DNA from: Mesotaenium endlicherianum
Taxonomy: Eukaryota
DNA: 64,000 nucleotides
Direction: 5' to 3'
Assembly (NCBI GenBank): GCA_009602735.1
Contig: WELA01000984.1
Coordinates: 339,097-403,096 of the forward strand
Part shown: positions 10,969-62,076 of the stretch, in pieces
How the letters are laid out: every line of letters begins with the position of its first letter
Numbering within the stretch: the first letter of the stretch is position 1
The notes under the pieces: generated by a model
The model's input: only the letters and a program-made list of their open reading frames with translations
Database searches by the model: none
Told to the model about the DNA's origin: nothing
Position numbers and translations under genes: made by a program

Positions 10969-11040
<72 letters not shown>

Positions 11041-26327: not shown

Positions 26328-26460
26328 GCTAAAGACTAAATGACCCTTGTATTCCATTGACATGTACAATTTGTAAGCATTTTGACTGATTCGGCGTACC
26401 ACCAAATAGGGGCCCACCCAGACAGGTCCAAGCTTTCTCTTGATGACCCCAGGAAGGTAC

Positions 26461-36547: not shown

Positions 36548-38566
36548 TCAAAATTTATTATGCAGGGGCCTATCACCAGTAGCAGTTTTAATTTTTTGTC
36601 CAGAATCTGCGAGAAGAGAAGAGTGTTTCCTCTTTCTTGTTCTTGCAGGCTGCCTCCAAGGGGTCTTCTGCTGCTTCTTGATGGTGGCAGGCTGCCTCCT
36701 TGAAGTCTTCGGGCTTCGAGTAGAGAGACTTGGGGCTGGTCCAAGATGGGGGTTGGCGGCATGGAAGCGCTTCAACTTACTCTGAACTTTGTCAAGGTAG
36801 TGTGCCGCCACCCAACTATTCTCCGAATCTGGATATCCTTTCCACTTGATCAAGTATTGCTGCTGTCTCCTGAAATTTCTCATAGCCACTATGTCTTCCA
36901 CTTCGTACTCCAAATGATCATCCATTATTGTTGGGGCTGGTGGGGTTGTCACACGTCCTGGGAACTTGTTGTCGGGTTGCACATATGGCTTGAAGAGGGA
37001 AGCGTGGAATACGGGGTCGATGTGCATAGTCTGGGGAAGTTCTAGCTTGAAAGCAACGGGGTTGACTTGCTGGATAATCTTGAAGGGTCCCAAATACTTG
37101 GGAGAGAACTTGCTGTCGGCAGGCCTGATGCTCAGGGAAATATTCTTGGATGATAGTAACACGTTGTCACTCACTCTGTACGTAATTTCTTTTCTGGATC
37201 TGTTCACCACTCTTGCTTGAGCATCTTGCGCGTGTTGTAGAGCTTTCTTCGCTGCTGTAAGGGCTGCTTCTAATGTCTCCATAAAATCNNNNNNNNNNNN
37301 NNNNNNNNNNNNNNNNNNNNNNNNNNNNNNNNNNNNNNNNNNNNNNNNNNNNNNNNNNNNNNNNNNNNNNNNNNNNNNNNNNNNNNNNNNNNNNNNNNNN
37401 NNNNNNNNNNNNNNNNNNNNNNNNNNNNNNNNNNNNNNNNNNNNNNNNNNNNNNNNNNNNNNNNNNNNNNNNNNNNNNNNNNNNNNNNNNNNNNNNNNCA
37501 GCCGGTCCATGAGCTCATCCATGCGCGGCAGCGGGTATCGATTCTTGATGGTGATCTTGTTGAGGGCGCGATAGTCCACACACATCCTCAAGGTACCATC
37601 TTTCTTCTTGACAAATAGCACCGGGGCTCCAAATGGCGACTTGCTAGGTCGAATGAAGCCATGCTCCAGTAGCTCCTTGATTTGCTTCTTGACTTCGTCT
37701 AGCTCCGTGTATGACATTTTGAACGTAGGCCGAGAGATGGGCTTGCTTCCGGGCTCCAACTCTATCTTGTGGTCCACGAACCTTTTGGGGAGTAAGCCCT
37801 TGGGCAATTCCGGAGAGAATACTTGTTTGTAGTCCTCTAAGACTTCTTGGATCTCCTTGGGAACGGGGCTGCCTTCTTGACTCTCGATGTCTTTCTTGAT
37901 GTCTTTTGGCGTGATCAAGGCCAAAAGAAGCTCGTGTCCCTTCCTCACAAGTCTCTTGCGTTGGAGGGCGGACAATAGTATCTCGTGTGTCGGCTTATAG
38001 ATGTCTTGAGTCTGGATATTCTGGATTGCGCGCAAAATACAGATTCTTGAAGTGATGTCATTTTTGATCTTGATAGTACCGGTCCTCCAATCAACTTGGG
38101 GGTTGTGCTTGGTCAACCAAGGCGTCCCTAGGATGATGTCGTACTTGCCCAATTGCATGGGGGAGAACACTACTCTATCCTTGAAGGACTTGATAGAGAG
38201 TGCCAAGGGGTACGTCTTCTTGGAAGGGGTAGTATAGGAGAATCCATCGGGCATCATAATCTCCTCGTCGTGGTCAAGAGTTCGCATAGTAATACCGTGC
38301 TTGGTGGCAAAATCTGCAGCAATGAAGTTGCCTTGAGCTCCGCTATCCACCAAGATGTGGACCTTCTCTCCTCCAAGGTAACCTCTCAAACTCATTGGGG
38401 CTGGAACGTCGTCATCAACGGGGGTCTCCACCTCACTTGGCTTGTTGCCTTCTCGTGAAGTGGGTCTTGGGGTGGTAGGCTCCTGGCCTACCGGCGCTGT
38501 CCGTTTTTTGACAACTTTTTGGGGCATGACAGTGCACGATGGCCTTTTTCCTTGCAATAAAAGCAT
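36548..38566 (-). CDS. pol: A1 Pol (protease, RT, [N gap], integrase end, chromodomain)
   Basis: [35 protein letters not shown]...YLIKWKGY. 210 Ns stand in for roughly 1.9 kb present in A2. Confidence 0.88.
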
Positions 38567-39693
38567 AGTCCAGCCGTCACGAGAGCTTCTTTTTCAGCCG
38601 GGGAGAGTCTTGCTTTCACTCCTTGCTGGTTTCTTGCATCAAAAGTGTCATTGGAGGGTCTTTCACTCTTTTGGGCAGCCGCGGGGTCCCTTTTAATAAC
38701 TCCGATTTCCATGGGTGTGGGTCCAAATTCGGATGTGGAAGGGGCTGCGTACACCCGCGTCGCCGGTACCCGTGAAGATGAAGGCACGGAGTGCTTGAAA
38801 TCCAAGGTATCCACCTTTTGGGCCACTTCAATGATCTTTGAGAAGTCCGTCAAGTCGCGTAACTCCACTTCCTTTGCCACCTTGGGTTTGAGGCCAAAGA
38901 TGTAGCGGTCAATCTTCTCCTCGAGAGACATGTTGGGGATCTCAAGAGTGAGGGCGTGAAATCTGGATGTATACTCTTGAACGGACGTCGTTTGCTTGAG
39001 ATGGTGGAGCTTTCCTCGGGCAATCTTCTCCGCATTGATGGGCATGAATTGCTTCTTGAGGGCCTCACGAAAATCTGCCCATCTTGCATATGATGGTGGG
39101 GGCTCTTGGCCGAGCATGGGGTGCGCCATAGCTTGATATATAGCCGCTTGATAGTTACGCCACCATGATGTTGCTGCTCCTCTAAGTAAGGTAACGGCAA
39201 AGGGAACGTAGTCCTCCTCGGGTACTTCAAGGAACGCGAGGTACGTCTCCACTTGGTAGAGCCATAAATTCAGGTTGGCACCTTTCCCGGGGTTGAAAGT
39301 GTCGGGTTTGCCGGGCTTGATGAGTTTCCTTGCTCTCGTTGGCTCTTGTGGAGGCGCTTGAGCCGGGGCTGGATTTTGAGCATTGCTCGCAATAGGGGCA
39401 ACCATGGCAGCCATAGCTTCTCTTGACGCTTGCACGGTTGCTTCATAGGTGGCCAAGCCCACTTGGTTGTGGACGGTCATTAGGAAGGCTGCCCACTCAT
39501 TTGCGGGAACTCCTTGTGGTGGGGTCAACTTTGCTATAGCGGCTGCCACGGGATTTGACGGTGCTCCTCCTTGTGGTGCTTCTTGTTGTTGCAACTTTTC
39601 TTGAGTGGGCTCTCCTATCGGCGCTGGAGGAGGGTCTCTTGGAGAGGAAGGGCCCCCTTCGAAAGCTTGCTGTTGGTCTTGAGGATCGGCCAT
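38488..39693 (-). CDS. gag: A1 Gag (capsid domain plus CCHC zinc knuckle), 401 aa
   Basis: [10 protein letters not shown] motif, [21 protein letters not shown]. Confidence 0.92.
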
Positions 39694-42600
39694 CTTCTTG
39701 TGCTACCAAAGTGCCTAGCTCTGATACCACTGCAGTGAAACAGATAGATAAAGTACTTAGTGAAATAGAATACTTTATCTATTCAAGACAAGGATCTTTG
39801 AACACAAGTGGTAGCTTCTTGAAAGAGAGATGGCTTCTTGAAAGTTAATATATTTCTGGATTTTGGCAAGTACAAGAGTGATTCTCCAATGTCTTTCTAT
39901 GTTCTAGCTCTTGTTTACATACTTGCTACATAAGTAATTTCTAGGAAGGTGTATGTTGATGTGTTGGCACCCAACACATCCCAAAACTTGCCACCTCTTT
40001 CTAGAATAATGTACACATGTCCTTTTGACCTAAAAATGGCACATTTGACTTTTGCCACATGGAGTTCTTCTAGGTCTTTCCTCTAACTTCGAAAATGCCT
40101 TAGAAGGTTCGAAGGACATGAACCAAGTCACTAGAGTACCTATTCACACTTGAATCCACACAATACTACTCCAAATATATTTGAAAATATTAAAATATAT
40201 GCAAATTAAATATATAATAACTCAAATCACTACACCGTCCTTCAAAGTTGGTGTTGCCGAGTACATCGTCAATTGCGAAACATGTCAGAGGAATAAGCCG
40301 AGCCATACGTTACCAGCTGGGAAGTTGCAACCATTGGAACTTGCATGTGTTCCTTGGAAAAGCATAAGCCTCGACTTTGTCGTGGAATTGCCTACCACCG
40401 ATAGAGGACACAATGGGGTGTTAACGATCGTGAATCGTTTCACTAAGATGGTGCACTTTGTGGCCACTAAACCATTACTTGATGCAGTCGAGACCGCGCG
40501 TCTCTTCGTGGATCATGGGTTCAAGTTGCATGGCATGCCGAAAGACATCATAAGTGATCGTGACAGTAGATTTACGAGCCACTTCTGCAGGAAGTTTGCT
40601 CGCATTTCGGCACGAACCTTAAGATGTCAACTAGCTTCCATCCTCAGACCGATGGTCAGACAGAGCTCTTGAACCGTGTTCTGCAACAATTCCTTGGGCA
40701 TTATGTGAATCCTCGCCAAGACAACGGGTACACCCTCCTTTCATTTGCAAAGTTTGCAGTTAATAATGCTTATCAGGAAAGTGGTAAGGAAACTCCATAT
40801 TTCCTTACCTATGGGCGACCTCCGCACACTCCCCTGACACACGTCGTTCAAGGTCAGACGAGGACGTCAACCATGAGAGTGCCAAGTGCACGCCTATTTG
40901 TCCATTCTCTTCAAGAGGTGCACAAAAACGCGAAGTTGGCTTTAGCCGCTGCTCGAGATCGGCAGAACAACGTTTGTTGACACGCACAGGACTAAGTTAA
41001 GTTAACAAGTTGGCAATAAAGTACTTTTGTAAACTAAAAACCTCCAACTCAAGTACCCAGGAAAGCGAAAGATTCTGCCTCGCTGGGTAGGCCCTTTTAT
41101 CGTTATTGCAACGGTTGGACCTGTTGCATACCGACTAGATTTGCCTAAATCCATGGGGCGAACGCATCCTGTGTTCCATGTCAATTTACTAAAGCTGTTT
41201 AGGTATGATGGCCGCTATCAGCCACAAGCACCAGAACTAGAACTCGACGATGATGATAAGGCCTGGGATGTAGAGGAAGTCTTTGGACATCGCTATACCC
41301 GCCATAAGCCTCCCAGAGTGGAGCTTTTGATTAAATGGCTAGATTACAATTCTAGTTGGAATTCGTATGAACCTCAGGGTAAGATCCTCCTTAATTGTAA
41401 GGACTTGGTTCAAAGATATTGGTTACGATGGGCTCAAGCTCAAGAGCTCTGCGCCGAGGCAGGTGTGCTACCAAGCGCTCTTCGTAAACCATGGAACAAA
41501 CGCAAAAGAGACGCGGCCAAATAATCGCTCTTTTCCGTCACTGTGATGATGCATAGTCCAATCGCTCACCAATGTTTTCCGCTAGTCAAGGCTAGTATTG
41601 ACACATTCAGACTTAAAAGATGTACGCTTAACGAGGACGTTAAGTTCTTTTAGGGGGGATGAGTGTAACGATTTGAGCTATTTTAGGCGTATTTGGGACG
41701 TTTTCCCAATTACCTAAAGTACGTTATACTATTTATCATATTACTTGATAAATATGATTGCATCATATTCAATTATTTGCCACACGCGTGTGCCGATTAA
41801 TTCCTGGTCGATTGGCGAAACGACCAAGATACTATTGCAAAAAGCGTCGTAATATAACTCGACTACTTCGCAAAAGTACGACATAATTATTCATGAAGTT
41901 ACTTTGATTAATTATAAGATGATAACTTCGTAAATCTCGGACTGATTAAGTTGATATGCTTGTCATTCTTTTGGATAATGCACAGTTATAGATTTTGCAT
42001 TTATGACCAGTCGTTAATACGAAAAAACAGTCGTAAAAGTCAAACGACACATAATATGCAAAGGGATTTTGCATCCGAGCGGATTCGAACCCGCGACTTG
42101 TCGTTTGTTGAAACGTTCACACCTAACCGATTGGCGGAGTGGTTTTTATAACTCCCGGTTCATGACCAAAGCATCTGTACGCGACTCCGCGAACAGTTGC
42201 GACTTTTCAAATGTCGCGCGAATGCGAAAACGCCCATTTGGCGTGAAACGGTTTTTCGGAAACCGACGAAAAGTCTCCAAACCGCCAAACGGTGCGTTTC
42301 GAGCATTCGGCCGAATGGGTCGTACCCCTTCGACCGTTTACGTTGAACATGAACCAGTGCCCTAGGTATTGACTCAAAGCACTCCAGTGCCTCATGTTGT
42401 GCAAGTGTAAATACTTGCAAGAGTCATTGTGAGTGCAACTCTCACAAGCACACATTCTACGTTAGTTTTCATTTCCGCTATTTCAAGTATTCGTCAATTC
42501 GCACAAGTATACAGATTTTCTTTCCACTTCAATTAAATATTCCTTGAATACGAGGATAGATCCTCTTGAAAAGCAGAAACGTTACAGGTTTATTCCCCTA

Positions 42601-44752: not shown

Positions 44753-46586
44753 TTAACACTAGATAGTCCAACGGAATTTATGCTCTTTGGCCCAACAATT
44801 ACCTGGACTAGATATTTTTCTCAAAGCTCATTAGTGGTTCAATTAACTTGTCTCTTATGGATTCTAGAAGGTCATATCACAATCTAGGTCACTATGCTTT
44901 TTTTTTGGTCAAGGGGATTTATTTTTTGCCCAAAAAACTTCAAAACTTTTTTGTCCAAAAAACGATCGAGAAAATTGCATACTTTGAGTGACTACCACAC
45001 TCAATTGACTTGATTACAAAAGTTTTGATTTTTGCCAAAATTGCTTATATAGGTAAGGAGTGTGCTTATAAAATTTAACAGTTATAACTTCAATATTCTA
45101 GAAGTTGTAGAATTTGAGAATTGGAAGTTATATTCGGCCCCCTGCTTTTTGCATGGCCCAACAAGAGAAGTATTATTGGCTTCACAAAACACATCCTATC
45201 AAGCTCAATACAAGGTCTTTGAACATGAAATTAAAGGATATGGTATGTAAGATAGCAATGTTTTTTATTAATATTTAAATTAGTTTAATAAATTAAAAAA
45301 TCTTAACAAGTCATTTCATCATATTTCAGGAGCAAACAGGAGTAAAGTTTTATTTTCAATAAAAAGAAATATTCTTAATTCAAGAAGGCAAAACAAAGTC
45401 ATACTATTGCTTTGTAGACATAGCAAGAAAAAAATGAAATTGATATAGCAAAGAATAGAAGTCTGGTAAAATCGACAACAAGTGCGCGTTATCGCCTACT
45501 TTTGCCCTTGATCCTTGACCTCCCTCTTATCTCCAACATCAAGGTGGTCTATCTGCCTTTGTATATGATACCTCTGAAAGCACTTAGAAGGACACAAGAA
45601 TCTTTTGCGAGGCTCACACATGAAGTGAACCTTAGGAGCTCTCAAGCCAGATGCACGAAGCCCAAAAGTGCCAGCTGTACACACTACGCATCGCTTCCTG
45701 TCCTTCACCTTTGCTAGAAAATACTTGTGAGTCCACCTTGCACCTGCAGCAATTGGGGCTGGGACGGTTTGGATCACCACCTTGCTAGGGCCTTCATCAT
45801 GGGGATGGCTGAAGTTGCACATGGCATCCTTGATCTCCAAGTAGTTGTCAAACCTGTCTTCGTCGGGTTGTGCCATCTTGTATAAGATGAACACAATAGC
45901 AAGCAAGCCATCAAAGATTCCCAGTAGGCCCTATGCCACCACTTCCTATTTACCAACACTCTCTCAGAACTATAGTTTCTAGCTAGACACATAGCATCAA
46001 ATTGATCAACTGCATCCTTGTACAATTTATAGTGTTCTACTAACTTTGGAGCTGGCAGAGACACTCTCTCTTTTCCAACATGCCTAAGCTGAGTTTTGGG
46101 AGCCAGACCCTTTGCTGTAGATAAAAATGCACAAGGCCTTTGATCATTCCATACACATGCAACCATAGAGGGGTGCTAATTGTATGCAGCTATAGAGTGG
46201 CCTGGAGGGTGAGAATCAGGCTTCATCCACAACAAGCCAGCAGGATAGTCCTTTCTATTTGTGACAACTGTCCCTGTGGCTGCATGTCCCATCTTAGCTA
46301 GTAGTGCAAATAGATGAGGTGAGGTGAAGCCTCTATCCACGATCAAATTAAAAAAAATACCCATAGGTAGCATACTCACTAAGTCTCGTACAACCTGTGT
46401 CTTTTGACCAGGAAACTTGACTCTGTCATAGATTATGAATGCATAACAAGAGTAAGTAAGGGCATCACAGATTGTGAACAATTCTATGCCATACTTGTAA
46501 GGCTTGGAAGAGTTGTACACTCTAATGAGGCATTGTCTATTTCTAATTGGGATTGTTCTTTCATCCACAGTCAGGTACACTCCAAG
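44753..46586 (-). mobile_element. piggyBac-like DNA transposon, 3' half
   Basis: Transposase remnant, AT-rich 3' region and a candidate terminus TTAA|CACTAGATAGTCC at 44753-44769. The terminus is tentative because the partner TIR is not in the window. Confidence 0.6.
45496..46586 (-). pseudogene. piggyBac (DDE_Tnp_1_7-type) transposase pseudogene
   Basis: LTVDERTIP...KPYKYGI, IVDRGFTS, ATGTVVTNRKDYP, DAVDQFD, KWWHR, and a C-terminal Cys-rich region RCVVC...C...LC...CFQRYH. In-frame TAG at 46176 and 1-bp frameshift near 45920; N-terminus cut off by an LTR. Confidence 0.9.
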
Positions 46587-47293
46587 TGAAATGAATCGAC
46601 TTACCAAATAGGCAATTAACAATTAATGAAGATCTTTATATCAGCAAGTAATCTTTATGGTGTTTTTTGTTAATTGATTTAACAGCAAAGGACAACACAC
46701 TAGCAGTGGACAATACTCGTAAGTCAAATGGTAGTAAACTAGCATCAATAATGCAATCAGTAAACTCACACATAAGCAAGGCTAGGAGACAGTGCATATC
46801 AATGGCTTCTCGCCTTGGATTCAGATCTCTCTCAATAAGCTTTACAAGAGAGTTGGCCTCGTTTCCGAATGCCGAACTCGAGAGCAATACCTAGCGTTTG
46901 TACATGGAATGAGTTTACTGTTCGATGGCACCGCCTACCCGGGAGTTAACCGCGTTGGTAGGACCTCGGTTAACCAAATCCACCGCCATCTCCCATCATC
47001 CCGAATCGCCATCCATCCTAAGGATGTCATCTGGCCATTCATCTAGCACACCACACTTAGATGCATATCTAGGCAGTTTGCTGCTACCGAGTACGGAAGT
47101 CAGCTGGCTGTCAAAGAATGTGTCAGCAAGCTGACCTAAGTTGACTTCAGCCTGCTGCTCCCGGCTGAGTCATTAAACTGATTATTTTATAAAGTCCACC
47201 AGACTAAATATTAACTAAAGTTCAGCAGGCTGAACTTATTTAACTTTTATAATTAAATAGATATTATATTTACCAATATACTGATTCATTACA
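46587..47293 (-). mobile_element. Family C LTR (707 bp), probably the 3' LTR of element C1 inserted into the piggyBac
   Basis: TG...CA homolog of 23193-23910; no local TSD; lies directly downstream of C1 pol and ORF3 on the same strand. The PPT-like tract is decayed (AAGTTGAAGTGAT). Confidence 0.8.
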
Positions 47294-47449
47294 ATCACTT
47301 CAACTTAACAAGTTGTCGCCTCGACAACACTAACACTTGGTACATGGTCCCTCTAGCTGAAAGTGTTGATCGACTCCCAACACCTTTTGCTTCAATCCTG
47401 ATACCTAACGGTGGGGGTCACTAGTAACAGCGTGCTCTCCCCTCGACCC

Positions 47450-49120
47450 TCAACCTATTGCCATTAGGAAGGAGATGTTCCTTGGGGGCCCATGGTCAGG
47501 GGAGCCAGACCTCCTCCTGTCTTGGGGTCTCCTGAAGCCTGGGGGATCTACGTAGGGGCCCCGCGGAGAACGCAGTAATTGGGTTGTTTCCTCCTACACA
47601 GTCTGAAACTGAAGGGAGGCAGCCTTCTCCTGGGCAGCCCTCAAACTGACAGGAACATATACCGGCATTCCAGAAGGATGTTGCATGACATGAGCCAAGG
47701 GCACATGCCCTCTCTGCGAGGAAGATGCTGGCAGGCCTCTGGCTATCTCTCTAGCAGCCCTCCTGTCTGCACTGTCTGATTGGGTCTTCGTGCCTGCAGA
47801 TGGGCTCTGTCCTTTGGCAGTTCCCAGCCAAGTGATATCTTCCTCTTCAGCGAGCTGTTGTAACGCCAACCCAGTCTTATCCCTTACAAGGGATGTGGCA
47901 GGTGTCAGGACCACAGCGGGGCTGGTGTCCTCCTCCTCGCCTTCCTCTTCTTCCTCCTCTGACCCCTCCTCCTCTCCTTCCCCTGGTTCCTCTGAGACTG
48001 CTGGGGTCTATTCTGTCAGCTGCTCCAGCTCTTTCCGAAAAAAAGAATATCCCACTGACCTTCCCCTTTTGGGTGCTGGTGGGGGTTGTTGAGTCCGGAT
48101 TGCATACAGGTCCTTTTCGACCTGCTTGCTTGCCCATTTGGCATAAGCGTGCTTCCCTTTAGAGAATGACTCACGGGCCCTGCTCCTGTCCTCCTGCATT
48201 TCTTGGCTCATGCAGTCTCTTACTCCATCCAATCTTGGGTCCCAAGCGGCAATATGAGGAGGCAACACTATGTTCCCCTATAGGTCCGTTAGGAAGTCTT
48301 CCTCCCTTGCCTTGTCATTTTGCTGGTCCCTCATGTTGATGGTCATCCACCGCCAACCGGTGGGCTTCTGGAAGAAGGCAGGGTCTGTTCTTTTCAGAGT
48401 ACAAGGGTACCAGTGCCCTGCAAAGTCTAGCTGACTGGTTTCCCTCGCCAAAAATGTCCAGCTTCTTCTCTCCATCTCATTTTACATGGCCTTGAACCTG
48501 TTATCGAATGTAGAGTCCTTAAAGCTGTCCGCGTCCATAGGATTCATCCTGATGACACTATCTTTTCCCCAGATACCCGGAATGGATACAGCTCCTATTT
48601 CATTCATCTGGGCCATTGCCTTGGCCTCTTTGACCGTATATCCTACCATCCTGGCGTAATTGTGGTAGAGGAGTCCTGTGCTGACCTCTATATACTTGTC
48701 GAAGCTATCAGATGTCTCCCCTTCCCTTCGCAGGATGTCCTGCTGTGCCTTACTGCGACTTCTCTGGGCATACTTGAAGACCTCCTCCACTAGATCAAAG
48801 CCCTTGCCCAGCACTGTGTAGCGGTAGCTGCTGATTCTCCTCTGTTCTTCTTCGTCAGCATGCTGCTTCCGCCTCTCCTCAGCTTGCCTCTCCTCTTCCG
48901 CCTTCTTGGCCTCCTCTGCAGCTTTTCTATCCAGTTCTTCCTGCCTCAGCCTGGCCTGCTCCTCCTCCTCCTTCTCCTTCTGTGCCTCCCGCTGTTGTTG
49001 GAGTCGTTGTGATTCTCGAGCGGAGATGGAGGATGATTCGATGTCGCCACGGAATTGCAAGTATTTTGCTTGTGCCTCTTCCGCTCTTCTCTTCCTCTTA
49101 AGTTCTGTCTTCTGAGTCAT
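47450..49120 (-). pseudogene. Extra ORF (ORF3) of family C element C1: unknown protein of about 510-557 aa (coiled coil, aromatic-rich core, acidic tail)
   Basis: ORF-track pieces 48482-49129, 48278-48475, 48008-48268 and 47594-47914 share one frame and are separated only by point stops; homologous to 50733-52208. Confidence 0.8.
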
Positions 49121-49478
49121 CCTGCTCAATCATAAACACAATGCAGTTAGTGAAGTCATGATACTTTGCCGCTACTGAGTGCTCGTGGTTAAAAAGAACG
49201 TGATAGGGAGAGTCCCTACAGTGTAGTACCTTGTGTGAGTGAGTATAACAGAGAATTGAGTTAGAGAGAGAAAGTGAGTATGAGCGCAGGTTGAGTGTGT
49301 AGAATGGTTATAAAATTCGCCTGGCTGATCCCGAAACGGAACACACTCCCTCCAACTTAAGTTTAAAGGTGGGCTGCCTGTCACAACTGTCACTATCTGT
49401 CACTAACTGTCACATTCCTCTCCGACTTATATGGAGACATGACCTCCTGTCACCTGTCCATGTCCACGAAAATGACAG

Positions 49479-50733
49479 TTAGGGAGGGGTGCCAGCCGCC
49501 GGAAGGTGGAACCGTTTCAATGCCCCTTTGGCATTGGTCAGCTAGTCTTTAAATTCCTAAGTGTCCCCAGAGGCGTCGTAACCCTTCCATCTGACCAGGT
49601 ACTTCATGACATATTTAGATGAGCGACGGACAGAACGAGCGTCTAAAATCTCCTCGACCTCATAATCCTCACGGTCACCATCTCGCACAGCGAGGACCGG
49701 TCCCGGTTGGACAGGTAATCGACCTGTGAACAGTGTGTCACCTTTGATGTATGGTTCAAGAATGAGACATTAAAGCCCGGGTGGCCCTTATATTATGTTG
49801 ACATATTCAGTTTGTAAGCATTCTGACCGACACAGCGCACCACCGAATATGGACCGATCCAAACAGGACCAAGCTTTTTCTTGACCACACCAAGCAGGTA
49901 CAGGTGCTGAGAATGCAGTTTGACCAAATCGCCCTTAGAAAATGGATATTGTTTCCCAGCGTCAAGCTTGGATGGGCAGTGGTTGTAAGAGACCCCCCAA
50001 TGGTGTGTGTCTAGACTTATTTCTTTGACAATGATCACAGGACTCAACATATTTCAAGACCTCCCAAGGTAATCCCTCCCAATGATAATGTTTTGCCAGT
50101 TTGCCAACAGCTTTGGCCTGCCCCAAATGCCCACCCAGTATACTGTCATGTGCTTGACTTAGTAAAAGGGACCTTATTTCCAAGTTATTAAGAATGACCA
50201 GCTTCAGCCTGCCTGAAGTGGTTTCAGTCACCCAGACCCCACCCTTAAGCCTATACCCGAGTGCAGTAGCAGGACACACACCATCAGTGGGGCTGGGCTC
50301 ATATGTTGGATCAGAAAGGTAGGCTTTTCTAAGTTGTTCAAGGAAGGACTTTTTCACCTTTAATGAAGTGAGTGTACAAAGGACTTTATCTACAGTATGC
50401 TGATTAAAGTTCCTTCCTTGCAGGTCACGTCTTCTAGAGAGTGCATCAGCAGGATTCAACTTCCTTTGTTTGTAGTCAATCTGGACTTGAAACTGCTCCA
50501 GCATCTGGCTCCAGCGGTTCTCCCTCCTCGACAGCTTGGACTTTTTCTGAAAGTGAGTAAGAGCTAGATGATCTGTAATCACCTTAAACGCTTTACCATG
50601 TAAGTATGCTCTCCACTGTTTGAGCACATGAATGATTGCTTGCAGCTCTTCATCATGCACAGAGTAATTAATCTCAGCTGGATTAAATTTCATAGACTCA
50701 TGTAACACAGGATGCCACTCCTGCTTTACCTTA
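49479..50733 (-). pseudogene. C1 pol fragment (RNase H, integrase with core deleted, chromodomain)
   Basis: QEWHPV..ES, NYSVHDEEL, TDH, QAHDSILGGH, WIGPYSV, DYEVEEILDAR...YLVRWKGY; stop at 49479. Confidence 0.88.
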
Positions 50734-52208
50734 GAGGTCGGCATACCTCTGGCCACCCCGCGTGTCCCTCTTCTGGCACCCCTGTCCTCTGGGGATTTCT
50801 GCTTTTGTCTGCTGCCAAGTACAGTCAGATCAGCTTCTTCCCTTGCTTGGGCAGGTGGGCTGGGGGAGCGAATGCGCGGTTCAATTACCTCCACGGCTGG
50901 GGTCACATGCCATATTCCTAATCTTGGCTCCTAAGGAAGCCTTGCCCTTGCCTGCCAGTGGGTCTCCTGCGTACTACCTCTTGATTCTCTTGCCTGCCCC
51001 TGGGTATCCTGAGTACCAGCTCCTGATGCTTCTCCTTTGCCTTGCTCTTCTTCCTCATCCTTCTCATCCTCCTCCTCTGAGAGAGTAGGAGTCTCGTCCA
51101 CTAAGTCGTCCTGCTCCCTGGTAGACATGGAGTAGTCTACTGACCTCCCTTTCTTAGGACGCGCCGGAGGTTGCTTGGCCTTCAGCCTGCTGATATCTAT
51201 CCGGCCTGCATTCTTTGCCCATTTGACAAAGGTATGCTTTCCCTTAGAGAAGTAGTCTCTCCCCCTCCTCCTGTGCTCTTGGTCTCTGAATTATATTGCT
51301 CAGGCAGCCATTCAGCCTAGGGTCCTAGGGGGCAATGTGAGGTGGTAGGATGAGGTAGCCGTCTAGGCCATAGTGGAAGTCATCTGGTTGGGCTGGGTCA
51401 CATTCCTGTTTTTAATTTGTGACGGTCATCCACCTCCAGTCTGTTGGCTGCTGGTAGTACTGGGGTCCATGCTCAGCTTTCCTCAGTTTACACGGGGACC
51501 ACTGGGGAGAGAACATCTGCTGTCCTGCGTCCTTGGCCAAGTACTCCCAGCTCCTTCTCCCAACTTCATTGTAAGCTGGCAGTAGTGTGAGGTAGAATAC
51601 CGTATCCTTAAAGCTATCGGGCCGCATGCTCACCATTTTGATGAGGATCTGATCTTCCACTGTTCTCGGTATTGGGACTGGCTTGTTCTCTGAATCATCT
51701 GCAAGGTACCGGGCCTGCTCTGCTGTATAGCCCACCATCTTGGCATAATCTTCGTAGAGGACCACACCAGTGTGTGTCTCAATGTACCTATCCAATGCTG
51801 CAGTTCCTTCCCTTTGTAGCAGTGTTGTCTGTTCCAGCTTGTTGATCTCCCGGGCTGCCAGCAATGCTTCCTTCACTTTATCAAAGTTTTGGCCACCCAC
51901 CACAGTATACCTGTAAGTGGCCAAGCTCTTCTGCCTGTCCGCTTCAGCCTTTTTCCTTCTCTCCTCCTTTGCCGCTGCCGCTTCTTCTTGTTGTTCTTCT
52001 GTCTTTCCTCCTCAGCTTTCCTGAGGTTTTCCGCTTCTTGATCCTTCTTCCTCTGTGCTTCTTCTGCCGCCTCTTGTTGTCTGCGGACCCTTTCTTGTTC
52101 TCTCCTTGTGAGGGACGTCGCCGCCAGCTCCTTCTGGTATTGCTCCATTGTCCTCCTGGCTTCTTCTGCCTTGCGCTTTTTCTCCTCCTTTTGTGTGGTG
52201 GGAGCCAT
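50733..52208 (-). pseudogene. Extra ORF (ORF3) of family C element C2, frameshifted and 3'-truncated
   Basis: MAPTTQKEEKKRKAEE coiled coil; YRYTV, DRYIETHTG..Y..YAKMVGYT, DSFKD, RRSWEYLA, PTDWRWMT and FSKGKH..KWA are shared with C1 ORF3. Confidence 0.8.
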
Positions 52209-53284
52209 TCTGCACATGTGACCAGGGCACAAGTTAGTAGGATATCGACCTTTGTCATAGGAGTTGCAGGAAGGGAGTAAGTTCGTATTAGTATGGTATA
52301 TTCGTTCTTGTTTACCTTACAGGGTGATTGCTAGGAGTGGACGTAGTTGCGGTGCGGAAGACGTAAACGTATGAATGTGTTTTCAGGTGTGTTAAGTGAT
52401 GCATTGCTGTGCGAGGCCCTTTTTCCTTCAACCCAAGGTGCTTTATGTGGGCCAGGCTGTCCCTTCTGTCACTATGCTGAGACTTAGGATTCACATAACC
52501 GTCCCATCTGTCACTATGCTGACACTTAGGGGTCACATAACTGTCCCTTTCTCGCTCTCGCACACTAACTGTCATATATTTTCCCCTCCAACTTAAATGG
52601 AGACAGATTCTCCTGTCACCTTCCCGTGTCAACAGAAATGACCGTTAGGGAGGGGCTTCAGCCGCCCGAAGGTGGACCCGTTTCAACGCCCCTTTGGCAT
52701 TAGTCAGCTGGTCTTTAAATTTTCAAGTGTCCCAAGAGGCATCATGTAGTGATTTGAGTTATTATATATTAGTTCGCATATATTTTAATGTTTTCAAATA
52801 TATTTGGAGTAGTATTGTGTGGAGTCAAGTGTGAATAGGTACTCTCGTAACTTGGTTCATGTCCTTTGAACCTTCCAAGGCATTTTCGAAGTTAGAAGAA
52901 AGACCTAGAAGAACTCCATGTGGCAAAAGTCAGATGTGCCATTTTTAAGTCAAAAGGACATGTGTACATTATTCTAGAAAGAGGTGGCAAGTTTTGGGAT
53001 GTGTTGGGTGCCAACACATCAACATACACCTTCCTAGAAATTACTTATGTAGCAAGTATATAAACAAGAGCTAGAACATAGAAAGACATTCCAGAATCAC
53101 TCTTGTACTTGCCAAAATCCAGAAATATATTAACTTTCAAGAAGCCATCTCTCTTTCAAGAAGCTACCACTTGTGTTCAAAGATCCTTGTCTTGAATAGA
53201 TAAAGTATTCTGTTTTACTAAGTACTTTATCTATCTGTTTCACTACAGTGGTATCGGAGCTAGGCACTTTGGTAGCACAAGAAG

Positions 53285-54565
53285 ATGGCCGATCCCCAAG
53301 ACCAACAGCAAGCTTTCGAAGGAAGCCCTTCCTCTCCAAGACACCCTCCTCCAGCGCCGATGGGAGAGCCCACTCAAGAAAATCTGAAACAACAAGAAGC
53401 ACCACAAAGAGGAGCACACCCTCCTCCAACGTCGATGGGAGAGCCTACTCAAGGAAATCTCCAACAACAAGAAGCACCACAAGGAGGAGCACCGTCAAAT
53501 CCCGTGGCAGCCGCTATAGCAAAGTTAACCCCACCACAAGGAGTTCCCGCAAATGAGTGGGCAGCCTTCCTAATGACCGTCCACAACCAAGTGGGCCTGG
53601 CCACCTATGAAGCAACCGTGCAAGCGTCAAGAGAAGCTATGGCTGCCATGGTTGCCCCTATTGCGAGCAATGCTCAAAATCCAGCCCCGGCTCAAGCGCC
53701 TCCACAAGAGCCAACGAGAGCAAGGAAACTCATCAAGCCCGGCAAACCCGACACTTTCAACCCCGGGAAAGGTGCCAACCTGAATTTATGGCTCTACCAA
53801 GTGGAGACGTACCTCGCGTTCCTTGAAGTACCCGAGGAGGACTACGTTCCCTTTGCCGTTACCTTACTTAGAGGAGCAGCAACATCATGGTGGCGTAACT
53901 ATCAAGCGGCTATATATCAAGCTATGGCGCACCCCATGCTCGGCCAAGAGCCCCCACCATCATATGCAAGATGGGCAGATTTTCGTGAGGCCCTCAAGAA
54001 GCAATTCATGCCCATCAATGCGGAGAAGATTGCCCGAGGAAAGCTCCACCATCTCAAGCAAACGACGTCCGTTCAAGAGTATACATCCAGATTTCACGCC
54101 CTCACTCTTGAGATCCCCAACATGTCTCTCGAGGAGAAGATTGACCGTTACATCTTTGGCCTCAAACCCAAGGTGGCAAAGGAAGTGGAGTTACGCGACT
54201 TGACGGACTTCTCAAAGATCATTGAAGTGGCCCAAAAGGTGGATACCTTGGATTTCAAGCACTCCGTGCCTTCATCTTCACGGGTACCGACGACGCGGGT
54301 GTACGCAGCCCCTTCCACATCCGAATCTGGACCCACACCCATGGAAATCGGAGTTATTAAAAGGGACCCCGCGGCTGCCCGGAAGAGTGGAAGACCCTCC
54401 AATGACACTTATGATGCAAGAAACCAGCAAGGAGTGAAAGCAAGACTCTCCCCGGCTGAAAAAGAAGCTCTCATGACGGCTGGACTATGCTTCTATTGCA
54501 AGGAAAAGGGCCATCGTGCACTTTCATGCCCCAAAAAGTTGTCAAAAAACGGACAGCGCCGGTAG
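53285..54565 (+). CDS. gag: A2 Gag, 426 aa
   Basis: Retrotransposon gag motif [10 protein letters not shown] and CCHC knuckle [14 protein letters not shown]. Confidence 0.95.
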
Positions 54566-57500
54566 GCCAGGAGCCTACCACCCCAAGACCCACTTCACGA
54601 GAAGGCAACACGCCAAGTGAGGTGGAGACCCCCGTTGAAGACGACGTTCCAGCCCCAATGAGTTTGAGAGGTTACCTTGGAGGAGAGAAGGTCCACATCT
54701 TGGTGGATAGCGGAGCTCAAGGCAACTTCATTGCTGCAGATTTTGCCACCAAGCACGGTATTACTATGCGAACTCTTGACCACGACGAGGAGATTATGAT
54801 GCCCGATGGATTCTCCTATACTACCCCTTCCAAGAAGACGTACCCCTTGGCACTCTCTATCAAGTCCTTCAAGGATAGAGTAGTGTTCTCCCCCATGCAA
54901 TTGGGCAAGTACGACGTCATCCTAGGGACGCCTTGGTTGACCAAGCACAACCCCCAAGTTGATTGGAGGACCGGTACTATCAAGATCAAGAATGACATCA
55001 CTTCAAGAATCTGTATTTTGCGCGCAATCCAGAATATCCAGACCCAAGACATCCAGAAGCCGGCACACGAGATACTATTGTCCGCCCTCCAACTCAAGAG
55101 ACTTGTGAGGAAGGGACACGAGCTTCTTTTGGCCTTGATCACGCCAAAAGACATCAAGAAAGACATCGAGAGTCAAGAAGGCAGCCCCGTTCCCAAGGAG
55201 ATACAAGAAGTCTTTGAGGACTACAAAGAAGTGTTCTCCCCGGAATTGCCCAAGGGCCTACCCCCCAAAAGATTCGTAGACCACAAGATAGAGTTGGAGC
55301 CCGGAAGCAAGCCCATCTCTCGGCCTACGTTCAAAATGTCATACACGGAGCTAGACGAAGTCAAGAAGCAAATCAAGGAGCTACTGGAGCATGGCTTCAT
55401 TCGACCTAGCAAGTCGCCATTTGGAGCCCCGGTGCTATTTGTCAAGAAGAAAGATGGTACCTTGAGGATGTGTGTGGACTATCGCGCCCTCAACAAGATC
55501 ACCATCAAGAATCGATACCCGCTGCCGCGCATGGATGAGCTCATGGACCGGCTGGTTGGAGCCAAGTACTTCACGAAGATTGACTTACGGAGCGGCTACC
55601 ACCAGATTCGCATCGCAGAACCGGACATAGAGAAGACGGCATTCAGGACAAGATATGGACATTTTGAGTTCATGGTCCTGCCATTTGGACTCACCAACGC
55701 GCCAGCAACTTTCATGACTATGATGAACACCATATTTCAGCCCATGTTGGACAGATTTGTGGTGGTATTCATCGATGACATCCTTATCTACAGCAAGACC
55801 CTTGAAGAGCATGCGAGACACTTGAAAGAAGTCCTTGAAGTATTGAAGCAAAACAAGCTGTTTGCGAAGGAGTCAAAATGCGAGTTTGCCAAACAAGAAG
55901 TGGAGTTCCTAGGTCTCCACGTGACTGCTGATGGCATCAAGATAGACCCCAAGAAGACCACGGTGGTGGAGGAATGGCCAACCCCCACGACCAAGAAAGA
56001 ACTCCAGTCATTCTTGGGATTTGCCAATTGGTACAGAAAATTCATCCAAGGCTTCTCGCACATAGCAGCCCCCCTGACAGATCTACTCAAGAAGGACAGG
56101 CTATATACATGGACCGAGAAAGAGGAAGAGGCATTTCAAGAGTTAAAGCGAAGATTGACCACATCCCCGGTGCTCACACTCCCAAGTCCAAACCCAGATT
56201 GGCCCTTCCACGTCATCACCGATGCATCTTCCTATGCAATAGGAGCAATCCTGCTTCAAGACCAAGGCAAGGGACTGCAGCCCATCGCCTACGAGTCAAG
56301 GAAGCTAAATCCAGCCGAGCAAAATTATACAACCACGGAGCGAGAGGCATTGGCGATTGTACATGCCTTGAAGGTTTGGCGCTGCTACGTTGAAGGACGC
56401 AAAGTACTGGTCACCACGGACCACGAGGCGTTAAAGCACCTCCAAACGCAGCCGTATCTCTCAAGGAGACAAGCAAGATGGAGCGGATACTTGCAACAAT
56501 ACAACATCACGATTCAGTACCAGCCCGGCAAGACAAACCCGGCTGACCCCCTCTCAAGACTGCAATTAAATGCAGTGATGGTATCCCTGAAGACAGATCT
56601 GGAAGCTCGATTTTCAGCCGCCTATGAAAGAGACCCTTACTACAAGAACGGAGAAGCAGCCTTGGACCCATGCAAGAAGCAAGAAGGCAATTATTGGGTG
56701 AGGCAAGATACGGGCCAGAGATGTGTTCCTAATGACTTAGACCTCCGGCTCTTGCTTCTACGAGAAGCACACGACAACCCTCTTGGAGGACACTTTGGAA
56801 TCCTAAGGACCACGGGCGTTCTAGCTAGGACTTATTGTTGGCCAGGCATGTCTAAGCAAGTCAAGGAGTACTGCAGGAGCTGTGACACATGCCAAAGAAT
56901 CAAGCCATCATCGCAAAAGGCGGGAGGACTCCTCCAACCACTACCAATCCCCGAAAGACAATGGACGGACATCTCAATGGACCTTATCGTGGACTTGCCC
57001 GTGACACCTCGAGGCCATAATGCAATACTCACGGTGGTGGACAGACTTACCAAGATGGCTCATTTTATTCCCACGACGACTAAGGCTACAGCACCACAAC
57101 TTGCAAGACTCATCTTTGACAACATCTTCCGACTCCATGGACTACCATCAAGAATTGTGTCAGATAGAGATCCAAGATTCACAAGCCATTTCTGGAAAAA
57201 TCTCTTCAAGAACTTGGGTACATCGCTGGATATGTCTACTGCCTACCACCCACAATCAGATGGGCAAACCGAGCGTATGAATCGTACCCTAAAGACCTCT
57301 CTAAAGGCCTACGTGTCTACCCTCGAGCAAGACTGGGACATGTACTTGACCCCCCTCGAGTTTGCCTACAACAACACTACGCAGGCCTCTACCCAAGAGT
57401 CCCCATTCTTCCTCAACTATGGCTTCCATCCGACCACGCCACTGAGCTTCACGGCTGGCCATGATGAAGTACCTGCAGCCACAGATTTTATGGAGACATT

Positions 57501-58071
57501 AGAAGCAGCCCTTACAGCAGCGAAGAAAGCTCTACAACACGCGCAAGATGCTCAAGCAAGAGTGGCGAACAGATCCAGAAGAGAAATTACGTACAGAGTG
57601 GGTGACAACGTGTTACTATCATCCAAGAACATTTCCCTGAACAACAGGCCTGCCGGCAGCAAGTTCTCTCCCAAGTATTTGGGACCCTTCAAGATTATCC
57701 AGCAAGTCAACCCCGTTGCTTTCAAGCTAGAACTTCCCCAGACTATGCACATCGACCCCGTATTCCACGCTTTCCTCTTCAAGTTGTATGTGCAACCCGA
57801 CAACAAGTTCCCAGGACGTGTGACAACCCCACCAGCCCCAACAATAGTGGATGATCATTTGGAGTACGAAGTGGAAGACATAGTGGCTATGAGAAATTTC
57901 AGGAGACAGCAGCAATACTTGATCAAGTGGAAAGGATATCCAGATTCGGAGAATAGTTGGGTGGCGGCGCACTACCTTGACAAAGTTCAGAGAAAGTTGA
58001 AGCGCTTCCATGCCGCCAACCCCCATCTTCGACCAGCCCCAAGTCTCTCTACTAAAAGCCCGAAGACTTGA
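54487..58071 (+). CDS. pol: A2 Pol (protease, RT, RNase H, integrase, chromodomain), -1 frame relative to gag
   Basis: LVDSGA; FIDDIL; TDASS/ERE/TDH; HHCC zinc finger; DLI/SDRD/ERMN integrase DDE; GPF motif; chromodomain YEVEDIV...[15 protein letters not shown]. Confidence 0.96.
54544..54579 (+). promoter_or_regulatory. Putative -1 ribosomal frameshift signal (A_AAA_AAC plus hairpin)
   Basis: In-phase slippery heptamer at 54544-54550; hairpin GGTAGGC-CAGGA-GCCTACC at 54561-54579; identical in A1. Confidence 0.75.
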
Positions 58072-60003
58072 GGGAGGCAGCCTGCCACCATCAAAAAGCA
58101 GCAGAAGACCCCTTGGAGGCAGCCCGCAAGAACCACAAAGAGGAAAAAATGACATTAGACACTTTTCTCTTCTTGCAGTTTCTGAACAAAAAACTAAAAC
58201 TGCTACTGGCNAACAAAAAACTGAAACTGCTACTGGCGATAGGTCTCTTCATAATAAATTTTGAAAATTTACTTGGCTGTAGTCCATGAGTAGTCGGTCA
58301 TTTGGAGTCCAAGTTTGCTCAATTTGGAGCAGTGGTGAGAGAGATATGATGCTCTAAGAAGAAGGGGGTCCGACTGCTGGCATTGTTAGGGCAGAATATG
58401 CCTTCTGACATTGTGCCATCCTCTGAACTTGGAATGCTCTGAAACTCAAGACTCTGGTGAAACATCTTACAGCGCCTAGTTTGAGACTTAGTTTGCAGAA
58501 TTTGGAGAAGCATAGAAGGACTTATGATTTTCAGAAGTTTCTGAACATATTTGGAGGAGTGCCTACTCTCTCAGCTCTCAACGACAGTCCAGAGATTAGA
58601 ATGCTCTCAAATTTGGTGACTCGGTAGAGTTCTCCGACGCGGTCCGTTTGGCACTCGAATTTTCAGATTTGGAACAGTTCTGTGGCCTCTATGAATTTTT
58701 GAGTTCGTGGCAGATTTGGGCCAACTTGTACAATTTTCTTTATCATTAAGGAGTAGGCTAGCCAATAAGGTCACACCACCTACGACCTTGCCTAGTCTAC
58801 CTTACATGTGTAGCACCTGACTTGGCGCCTTTGACTAGTCCTCTTCACATGTGTGGCATCTGACTTGAAACTGTTGACTAGTTTGCTCCACATGTGTAAG
58901 ACCTGACTTGACGCGCCGAGACGTCGCTTTTTCTATCGGGGGGGTGATGTAGTGATTGGAGTTATTATATATTAGTNCGCGCCGAGTCGTCGCTTTTTCT
59001 ATCAGGGGGGTGATGTAGTGATTGGAGTTATTATATATTAGTTCGCATATATTTTAATGTTTTCAAATATATTTGGAGTAGTATTGTGTGGAGTCAAGTG
59101 TGAATAGGTACTCTAGTAACTTGGTTCATGTCCTTTGAACCTTCCAAGGCATTTTCGAAGTTAGAGGAAAGACCTAGAAGAACTCCATGTGGCAAAAGTC
59201 AAATGTGCCATTTTTAGGTCAAAAGGACATGTGTACATTATTCTAGAAAGAGGTGGCAAGTTTTGGGATGTGTTGGGTGCCAACACATCAACATACACCT
59301 TCCTAGAAATTACTTATGTAGCAAGTATATAAACAAGAGCTAGAACATAGAAAGACACTCGAGAATCACTCTTGTACTTGCCAAAATCCAGAAATATATT
59401 AACTTTCAAGAAGCCATCTCTCTTTCAAGAAGCTACCACTTGTGTTCAAAGATCCTTGTCTTGAATAGATAAAGTATTATGTTTTACTAAGTACTCTATC
59501 TATCTGTTTCACTACACATCATAACCCTTCCATCGAATGAGGTACTTCATGACATATTTAGACGATCAACGGATCGAGCGCGCGTCTAAAATCTCCTCAA
59601 CCTCATATTCCTCAGGGTCGTCGTCCCGGACAGTGGGGACCGGTCCCGGTTGGACAGGTAACCGACCTGTGAACTATGTATTACCGTTGATGTATGGTTC
59701 CAGGAAGGAGACATTAAAGACAAAGTGACCCTTGTATTCGGCTAACATGTTCAGTTTGTAAGCATTTTGACCGACACGACGCACCACCGAATGTGGACCG
59801 ACGTAGACGAGACCAAGCTTTTTCTTGACCACACCAGGGAGGTACAGGTGCTGAGAATGCAGTTTGACCAAATCGCCCTTAGAAAATGTGAGCTCCCGAC
59901 GGTGTTGATTAGTGTATTTTTGTTGATTTTCTTGGGCTTTGTGCAGGTTTTGTTGGACGTTAGACAGGGTGTCAGCAAACTCCTCAGTTAATTGGAGGGA
60001 GAC

Positions 60004-60509
60004 TGTAGTGAAACAGATAGATGAAGTACTTAGTGAAATAGAATACTTTATCTATTCAAGACAAGGATCTTTGAACACAAGTGGTAGCTTCTTGAAAGAG
60101 AGATGGCTTCTTGAAAGTTAATATATATTTCTGGATTTTTGGCAAGTACAAGAGTGATTTTGGAATGTCTTTCTATGTTCTAGCTCTTGTTTATATACTT
60201 GTTACATAAGTAATTTCTAGGAAAGTGTATGTTGATGTGTTGGCACCCAACACATCCCAAAACTTGCCACCTCTTTCTAGAATAATGTACACATGTCCTT
60301 TTGACCTAAAAATGGCACATCTGACTTTTGCCACATGGAGTTCTTCTAGGTCTTTCCTCTAACTTCGAAAATGCCTTGGAAGGTTCAAAGGACATGAACC
60401 AAGTTACTAGAGCACCTATTCACACTTGACTCCACACAATACTACTCCAAATATATTTGAAAACATTAAAATATATGCAAACTAATATATAATAATTCAA
60501 ATCATTACA
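60004..60509 (-). mobile_element. Solo LTR, family A
   Basis: TG...CA ends, TSD GAGAC/GAGAC, inside the C2 integrase. Confidence 0.95.
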
Positions 60510-62076
60510 GAGACCGAGTTCTCAATCCCTTCAAGGTGAGTTAAAGACTTCCCTAGGACATCTAAAGGAGACTTAGGGACTCTACCCAGGCTCAGTTCAA
60601 AAGGAGTCTTGCCCGTTGACGCGTGCACCGCACTGTTGACCGCAAACTGGATTTGAGGTAACAGGTCATCCCAATTATCTTGTTTTCGGTTAATATGGGC
60701 TCTCAGTACCTCTTGCAGAACTCGGTTATTTCTTTCAGTTTGACCATCAGTCTGAGGGTGGTTTGCTGTGCTAAGCAGCTGTCTGACTCCCATTAACCCC
60801 ATTAAAGCCCTCCAGAACTTAGAGGTAAATTTTGAGTCTCTGTCTGAGATTATATTAGAAGGTAGCCCATGTTGGCATACTACATGGTTGTAAAACTGTC
60901 TCGCTGTTTCGAGTGCAGTCACTTTGACAGTTGTGGGGATGAAAATGACCATTTTTGTCAGTTTATCCACGACTACCAATATCAAATCATGCCCATTAGC
61001 AGTTCGTGGTAGTGTGACCACCCAGTCCATGGATATAGATTCCCAGCGTCCAGCTGGGATGGGCAGTGGTTGTAAGAGGCCCCCCGGTGGTGTGTGCCTA
61101 GACTTATTCTTTTGACATTGGTCACAGGACTTAACGTATTTCAAGACCTCCCGAGGTAATCCCTCCCAATGATAATGTTTTGCGAGTTTGCCAACAGTCT
61201 TGGCCTGCCCAAATGCCCACCCAGTAAACTGTCATGTGCTTGACTCAATAAAAGAGACCTTATTTCGAAGTTATTAGGAATGACCAGCTTCAGCTTGCCT
61301 GAAGTGGTTTCAGTCACCCAGACCCCTCCCTTAAGTTTATACCCGAGTGCAGTAGCACGACACACACCAGTAGTGGGGCTGGGCTCAAATGTTGGGTCAG
61401 AAAGGTAGGCTTTTCTAAGTTGTTCGAGGAAGGACTTTTTCATCTTTAGTGAAGTGAGTGCACACAGGACTTTAACTACAGCATGCTGATTAAAGTTCCT
61501 TTCTTGCAAGTCAGGTCTTCCAGAGAGTGCATCAGCAGGATTCAACTTCCCTGATTTGTAGTCGATCTGGACATGAAACTGCTCCAGCATCTGGCTCCAG
61601 TGGTTCTCCCTCCTCGACAGCTTGGACTTCTTCTGAAAGTGGGTCAGAGCTAGATGAGGTGTAATCACCTTAAAAGCTTTACCATGTCAGTATGCTCTCC
61701 ATTGTTTGAGCACATGAATGAAAGCTAGAAGCTCTTTATCATGCTCTGAGTAATTAATCTCCGCTGGATTAAATTTCATAGACTCGTACGACACAGGGTG
61801 CCACTCCTGCCTTACCTTACCATCCTTTGTGGTTTTCTCAGCAGGCTGCAACAAAATAGCACCCATGGCAAAGTCAGAAGCATCAGTGACCACCTGCACC
61901 GGTTTGCCGGGGTCATACACGGCTAGCACTGGGGCAGAACAAAGAGCATCTTTAAGGGTCTGGAAGGCAGCCTGCTGCTCTTCCCCCCACACATACCCTA
62001 TGTCTTTCTTAGTAAGGTCAGTCAGTTTACTGGCCATTGTAGAATAATTCTCAATAAATCTCTTGTAGTAGTTAGC

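Follow-up and report, generated by a model that had tools for sequence, protein, structure and literature searches.

Two decayed chromodomain-bearing Ty3/gypsy retrotransposons, C1 and C2, each carry a sense open reading frame (ORF3) after pol in the 64,000-nucleotide stretch of Mesotaenium endlicherianum DNA analysed here, hereafter the window. ORF3 is under purifying selection, and, as judged from the sequence, selection on the splice site directly ahead of it is well supported. We propose that an internal promoter, possibly derived from an old LTR, on balance probably drives a spliced ORF3 mRNA, with the packaged genome staying unspliced. Both copies share the same order of pol, an extra polypurine tract (PPT1), a TGACAG array, a G-poor leader, splice signals and ORF3, which is followed in C1 by a second tract (PPT2) and then an LTR. 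The parts of the two copies and their direct neighbours are as follows.

49479..50733, minus strand: C1 pol remnant with RNase H, integrase zinc finger, SH3 and chromodomain, ending with TAA at 49481-49479 (Pfam, BLAST).
47447..49120, minus strand: C1 ORF3, with stops at codons 213, 281, 371, 509 and 557; its true end is uncertain.
47294..47328, minus strand: hairpin GTTGTCG/CGACAAC and a weak second tract, PPT2, sharing TAAGTYGRAG with PPT1.
46587..47293, minus strand: 707-bp LTR, probably the 3' LTR of C1.
59517..62070, minus strand: C2 pol from RNase H to chromodomain, interrupted at 60002-60509 by a solo LTR (Pfam, BLAST).
52745..59516, plus strand: younger LTR element in the C2 chromodomain, with target duplication TGATG.
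52579..52744, minus strand: end of the C2 chromodomain with the pol stop (52647-52645) and PPT1 (52594-52579).
50734..52208, minus strand: C2 ORF3, with two frameshifts, several stops and a cut 3' end.

BLAST comparison of the two pol regions gave 85-91% identity. Pfam domains follow the order RT_RNaseH, Integrase_H2C2 and rve in C2, and RNase H then H2C2 in C1, where an internal deletion at ~49943 has removed the integrase core. The chromodomain (PF00385) of C1 scores above the cut-off (E 2.7e-8), and the interrupted half in C2 scores below it (1.5e-4). As the younger element with its TGATG duplication interrupts this chromodomain, which resumes at 52744, the pol and ORF3 of C2 were once contiguous. 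The C1 pol remnant shows this same junction. The cut 3' end of C2 ORF3 is joined to the C1 RNase H at 50733. The 5' parts of both copies are deleted or lie beyond the window, and only one probable 3' LTR is present. Among the best 120 of 2,140 matches, the nearest integrase cores are at most 59% identical, and the named matches among those listed include Closterium, Haematococcus, Chara, fungi and flowering plants, at 46-55% identity. Some related chromovirus polyproteins among the matches listed (P0089, P0090, P0092, P0075, P0095 and P0104) contain PF05869 or PF00692/PF22769, which we take to be methylase-like and dUTPase-like, respectively. A third pol copy (26330-28447, minus strand), 80-83% identical, is cut before the chromodomain by other LTRs and hence yields no ORF3.

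The motif TAAGTYGRAG occurs five times in the window, four of them at C1 PPT1, at C2 PPT1, at another site in C1 and immediately ahead of the 707-bp LTR; its presence at the tracts and next to the LTR ties this LTR to the C1/C2 family. The assignment to C1 is nevertheless an indirect one, since PPT2 has a lower purine content than PPT1 and the 64-kb window contains no 5' LTR belonging to the family. A 718-bp solo copy of the same LTR sits at 23193-23910, flanked by the target duplication GCCGC. On its other side, the 707-bp LTR adjoins a decayed piggyBac-like transposase (45400-46586, minus strand; Pfam DDE_Tnp_1_7), the 5' part of which is absent from the window.

The first 19 kb of the window hold host genes, including a PHD exon and RRM/RanBP-zinc-finger exons, and nested LTR retrotransposons fill the remainder. 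Two divergent host genes (870-4900, minus strand; 5580-11500, plus strand) lie a few hundred bases apart; one has RRM and RanBP zinc fingers (TAF15/FET-like), and the other a PHD finger, which by its motifs we take to be ATXR5/6-like. A 1,389-codon Ala/Pro-rich open frame (14174-18343, minus strand) has no Pfam match and is probably a large host exon. A young chromovirus family, whose 504-bp LTRs are 91-98% identical, is present at 59516-52745, 60509-60002, 62076-64000, 35371-40234 and 25261-25765, with at least three insertions in or beside C2 pol; its primer site is presumably tRNA-Met-type. In one young element, ~950 nt separate the pol stop from the polypurine tract (58070-59013, plus strand) without a same-strand ORF of 100 codons, and the junction of tract and LTR is doubled around an N at ~58975, probably an assembly artefact.

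Between the pol stop and ORF3, the two copies have a similar organization, composed of the following elements.

49415..49428, minus strand: extra polypurine tract PPT1 of C1 (sequence, C1-C2 BLAST).
49414-49407, minus strand: LTR-tip-like TGTGACAG of C1, directly past PPT1.
49378..49473, minus strand: TGACAG array of C1, five sense and one antisense, a putative enhancer.
49308..49315, minus strand: TATA-like TTTTATAA of C1, a candidate promoter element.
49230..49309, minus strand: G-poor putative first exon of C1, 4 G in 80 nt.
49122..49229, minus strand: predicted C1 intron, 108 nt, GTACTA ... CACTAAC (49152-49146) ... GCAG.
52462..52618, minus strand: TGACAG array of C2, four copies, partly in a ~42-nt repeat unit.
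52316..52395, minus strand: G-poor putative first exon of C2, 9 G in 80 nt.
52210..52315, minus strand: predicted C2 intron, 106 nt, GTAAAC ... TACTAAC (52239-52233) ... GCAG.

Re-reading the sequence, which contains zero Ns from 46000 to 53500, confirmed every splice coordinate of the original prediction in both copies. In C1, the donor AAG|GTACTA has its GT at 49229 and the acceptor GAGCAG ends at 49122, followed by one G and the ATG at 49120; in C2, the donor AAG|GTAAAC has its GT at 52315 and the acceptor GTGCAG ends at 52210, followed by one A and the ATG at 52208. The claim that the donor, the CTAAC branch point, the GCAG acceptor, the length of 106 or 108 nt and the 1-nt gap before the ATG are common to both copies likewise holds. 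The branch A lies ~25-26 nt from the intron end in each copy, and the two candidates have the features of a U2-type intron: a GT donor and a YTRAY branch point 18-40 nt from a YAG acceptor. The acceptor CAG of C2 is the first AG past the branch point; in C1 a GAG stands 3 nt ahead of the acceptor CAG. Among ten hand-read donors of the host genes are GTACTG (twice), GTACCT and GTAAAG, and six of ten hand-read acceptors have YTRAY and none has CTAAC; these host readings are indicative only, as joining the five hand-read exons leaves one stop, so that at least one boundary is wrong.

As had been stated, the interiors of the two introns cannot be aligned: their score is 18, the mean for shuffles is 21.4+-4.2, and 83% of 300 shuffles scored as high. 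The leaders also align no better than shuffles. Over 206 core codons of ORF3, the C1-C2 synonymous divergence (pS) is 0.70 (bootstrap 0.60-0.79), rising to 0.82 and 0.92 in the flanking parts, and dN/dS is ~0.24, an imprecise value with dS near saturation. With synonymous sites near saturation and the intron interiors and leaders unalignable, the match of the splice signals is unlikely to be a product of simple descent.

Could the match be due to chance, or could ORF3 be the unselected relic of a captured host gene, with splicing irrelevant to the element? There are just two copies, and the patterns were picked after inspection. A strict pattern of AG|GTR, CTAAC and YAG followed within 0-10 nt by ATG, itself written after the sites were seen, fits 2 of the 2,075 ATGs on both strands of the window, and these two are the ORF3 ATGs. 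When the 200 nt ahead of each ORF3 ATG were dinucleotide-shuffled 5,000 times, a looser pattern appeared in 2.4% for C1 and 0.6% for C2, and the donor alone in 6.5% and 5.5%, with a joint value of ~0.004. In total, six features match despite near-saturated neutral sites, which makes chance or a relic very unlikely.

Compared to ORF3, the pol genes diverged far less, with pS of only 0.17-0.36 across four segments, which argues for an age of the two ORF3 modules far exceeding that of the pol split. Based on this comparison, we infer that ORF3 modules may have been swapped between subfamilies, the exchange taking place at PPT1. This tract lies ~50 nt downstream of the pol stop in both copies. PPT1, the LTR-tip-like motif, the TGACAG arrays and the signal of module exchange are additions to the original prediction. 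DNA homology between C1 and C2 continues past the pol stop (65 of 80 positions matched) and ends 13 nt beyond PPT1, at 49401. Directly after C1 PPT1, the tip TGTGAC of TGTGACAG resembles the true LTR starts in the window; the C2 tip is degenerate. Another tract-like motif followed by TGT lies within the C1 TGACAG region (49360-49344, minus strand), 65 nt past PPT1.

In another reading, PPT1 would be the true tract and an LTR of at least 2 kb, starting at TGTGACAG, would hold the promoter, the intron and ORF3; C1 would then have inserted into the element that owns the 707-bp LTR. The position of PPT1 so close to the pol stop, its higher purine content compared to PPT2 and the TGTGAC tip all fit this reading, and the halt of homology 13 nt into the supposed LTR is what a fast-evolving U3 would produce. 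However, the inverted tip GTCACA occurs nowhere in C1 49414-47294, C1 would have to have landed less than ~150 nt from another element's 3' end, and the family motif TAAGTYGRAG is also found at PPT2. Moreover, extra tracts past the chromodomain are already known from Bongo3, as described in the available part of PMC3605345. Altogether, a long LTR appears quite unlikely. A GTCACA in the C2 intron was considered as an LTR end and rejected, as it has no counterpart in C1.

The order ORF3(C2), pol(C1), PPT and LTR-like tip would fit yet another unit, in which ORF3 belongs, as a 5' extra ORF, to a tandem neighbour having one LTR in common with the element upstream (in the order LTR, ORF, gag/RT now deleted, and pol). 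Precedents exist in the accessible part of PMC11728184, which describes 5' extra ORFs in Tekay chromoviruses and the sharing of LTRs between tandem elements. Yet the two supposed LTRs of such a unit are unalignable past 13 nt, a search for a primer-binding-site pattern found none, and what comes after C1 ORF3 is a tract plus an LTR instead of gag; this reading is thus highly improbable.

Returning to the internal promoter, no 6-mers other than TGACAG and the overlapping GTGACA occur at least three times in both upstream regions, and the TGACAG counts on both strands (six in C1, four in C2) were reached in 0 of 5,000 Markov simulations, although tandem repeats inflate such motif counts. The repeat units differ between C1 and C2. 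The only comparable cluster elsewhere in the window is a 13-nt tandem repeat with four TGACAG in a host intron (6746-6785). The putative first exons are G-poor to a degree reached by 0.3% (C1) and 3.3% (C2) of the 80-nt background windows from 19-64 kb, and by eye the TATA-like element and G-poor leader of C1 look like those of two LTRs of another family in the window. A TATA-like element had been described upstream of both donors; TTTTATAA is indeed present in C1, but the C2 candidate CACTTAA (52398-52392) is a poor match, and a second one, CATAAAG (52447-52441), lies 132 nt from the donor. The TATA box is thus not conserved.

The original prediction left two routes to ORF3 expression, an internal promoter or an env-like subgenomic splice. 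We favour the former, because a long env-like splice alone leaves the local donor, the G-poor leader and the TGACAG arrays unexplained; as for the protein, the term env-like does not apply, given a maximum hydropathy of 0.86. The second route would join a donor near the 5' LTR of an LTR-initiated RNA to the ORF3 acceptor, directly or via a 91-nt exon. An acceptor and branch point right before the ATG, as in the available descriptions of Athila and Bagy-2 (PMC7197481, PMC2829016, PMC7264820), would suit such a splice, as would the lack of a good TATA in C2 and a YAG that precedes the donor by exactly 91 nt in C1 and C2 alike. The direct form, however, does not account for the conserved donor, the intron length or the G-poor leader. 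For the 91-nt exon, no clear branch point goes with the upstream YAG, and in C2 the stretch before it is rich in purines and contains several AGs. As the two copies offer 9 and 12 candidate YAGs, a single common offset is weak evidence. We therefore regard an LTR-initiated splice as unlikely. Nothing on an internal start of Athila env was found in the accessible parts of PMC3276544, PMC5580714 and bioRxiv 2024.04.02.587720.

We propose that the region past PPT1 acts as an internal promoter, possibly from an old LTR left within the element, from which a capped RNA would start ~50 nt ahead of the donor in C1 and then lose the leader intron of 106 or 108 nt. Each intron contains two ATGs, one of which is in another frame and overlaps the start of ORF3, so that their removal by splicing would permit and favour ORF3 translation. 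If the module travels with the element, the packaged RNA should be mostly unspliced, given that the intron persisted in both lineages over the time in which neutral sites became saturated. The genomic RNA might escape splicing through a separate packaged RNA pool or through dependence of the intron on a nearby cap. Folding was considered as a third means, with the donor hidden by upstream RNA only in the long transcript, and was not supported: the unpaired probabilities of the donor are 0.59 versus 0.72 in C1 and 0.46 versus 0.49 in C2, all within the range of 40 shuffles. Several observations count against the internal promoter, namely the C2 copy without a good TATA, the sample of just two copies, both broken, and the shared YAG at 91 nt, which fits an internal exon. 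In addition, with near-perfect branch points the intron would be expected to be easily spliced, and hence easily lost.

As for its product, ORF3 is ~510-560 codons long, with a charged, coiled-coil-like N-terminus of 95 residues (67% E/K/R/Q/D), a conserved core of ~250 residues that is 44% identical between C1 and C2, a basic P-x-K-K/R-G-R motif shared by the two copies, and a low-complexity, acidic tail. ORF3 is not Env: it has no membrane segment, and the maximum 19-residue Kyte-Doolittle mean is 0.86 in C1 and at most 0.5 in the C2 pieces. A Pfam search gave no family above the cut-off. Among 1.84 billion representative proteins no relative was found, the lone match (E 4.5e-4) being a repeat protein over 31 residues, and word-indexed searches, metagenomes and viral contigs gave no homologue. 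AlphaFold prediction from the two-sequence alignment reached a pLDDT of 31.9 and no usable fold. The basic motifs and the extra ORFs of other elements (PMC7264820, PMC11728184, both in part) suggest that ORF3 may be a soluble nuclear accessory protein.

Metagenomes provided 80 pol loci of 39-50% identity, none of which matches ORF3. A chromodomain match is present in 35 of them; these have at most one TGACAG each within the following 500 nt, and no sense ORF downstream of them has a branch point and acceptor ahead of its ATG. Ten metagenome loci (L004-L007, L009 and L066, each with the ORF ~300 nt past the chromodomain, and L014, L027, L035 and L079) contain sense ORFs of 184-768 codons behind the chromodomain that are unrelated to ORF3 and have no acceptor signature. 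The L014 ORF stands behind a primer-site-like motif and may be an adjoining gag.

A far-reaching version combines an old 3' LTR turned internal promoter, an orphan nuclear accessory gene, a sense 5'-UTR intron that survives reverse transcription, swaps between subfamilies at PPT1 and a zygote switch of ORF3 acting through TGACAG and KNOX/BELL homeodomain factors; as a whole, it is doubtful at best. TGACAG itself is presumably a TALE site. KNOX/BELL sites and the Chlamydomonas zygote element have TGAC as their core in the available part of PMC4889651. A link of the arrays to the zygote is speculation, and in the literature searched nothing was found that joins KNOX, BELL, TGACAG and zygote.

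The following comparison with known systems draws on the accessible parts of the papers cited. Extra ORFs are common, occurring in 3,372 Ty3/gypsy elements (PMC6317226); the expression and role of sense extra ORFs in plant LTR retrotransposons are largely open (PMC7264820, PMC6317226). Similar to ORF3, the extra ORFs of Athila4, Calypso and Bagy-2 lie in sense between pol and the 3' LTR (PMC2829016, PMC7197481, PMC7264820, PMC1142308), with an extra polypurine tract in the linker and a splice acceptor ahead of the ORF (PMC2829016, PMC7197481, PMC7264820). ORF3 shares this position with env-like ORFs, provided that the LTR assignment is correct. However, those elements are not chromoviruses, whereas C1 and C2 are; ORF3 lacks both a membrane segment and a Pfam match and has a conserved donor just 106-108 nt ahead of it. 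The Athila/Tat (OTA) lineage is defined by an integrase without a chromodomain (PMC6317226), whereas C1 and C2 have one.

Maize Grande (Tat/Retand) also has an accessory ORF between pol and the 3' LTR, gene23, with its own promoter and a nuclear protein (PMC7264820). Compared to ORF3 and its intron, which are in sense, gene23 is antisense, and thus an intron there would not be spliced from the genomic RNA. In the ENV linker of Sireviruses (Ty1/copia), repeated motifs upstream of the 3' ORF have been taken to support an internal promoter, which has been proposed but not conclusively identified (PMC2829016). Besides the different superfamily, the motifs of Sireviruses are CGG-CCG boxes that recur in the LTR; the 707-bp LTR here contains one TGACAG. 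The chromovirus Bongo3 of Beta vulgaris has an additional polypurine tract right past the chromodomain, and no extra ORF or intron is described in the available part of that paper (PMC3605345). Barley BARE1 (Ty1/copia) keeps a 104-nt sense intron in its genome and has distinct translated and packaged RNA pools; its intron, however, is located at the gag/pol boundary and yields Gag, and both promoters are in the LTR (PMC3735527). Under the internal-promoter reading, the foamy virus tas/bet system is alike in that it combines a sense internal promoter with a spliced accessory RNA from the region close to the 3' end (PMC13220597). As foamy viruses are vertebrate retroviruses, this is a likeness of logic, and no homology is claimed.

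No chromovirus with a matching combination was found in the limited literature covered, mainly main texts of open-access papers. The C1/C2 elements belong to none of the Athila-type, Grande, Bongo3 and foamy virus systems, being chromoviruses with a non-membrane ORF. The exact junctions and the predicted start window of this locus make internal initiation and the escape of genomic RNA from splicing testable. If the proposal is true, the Athila-like two-tract layout extends to a chromovirus with a non-Env orphan protein.
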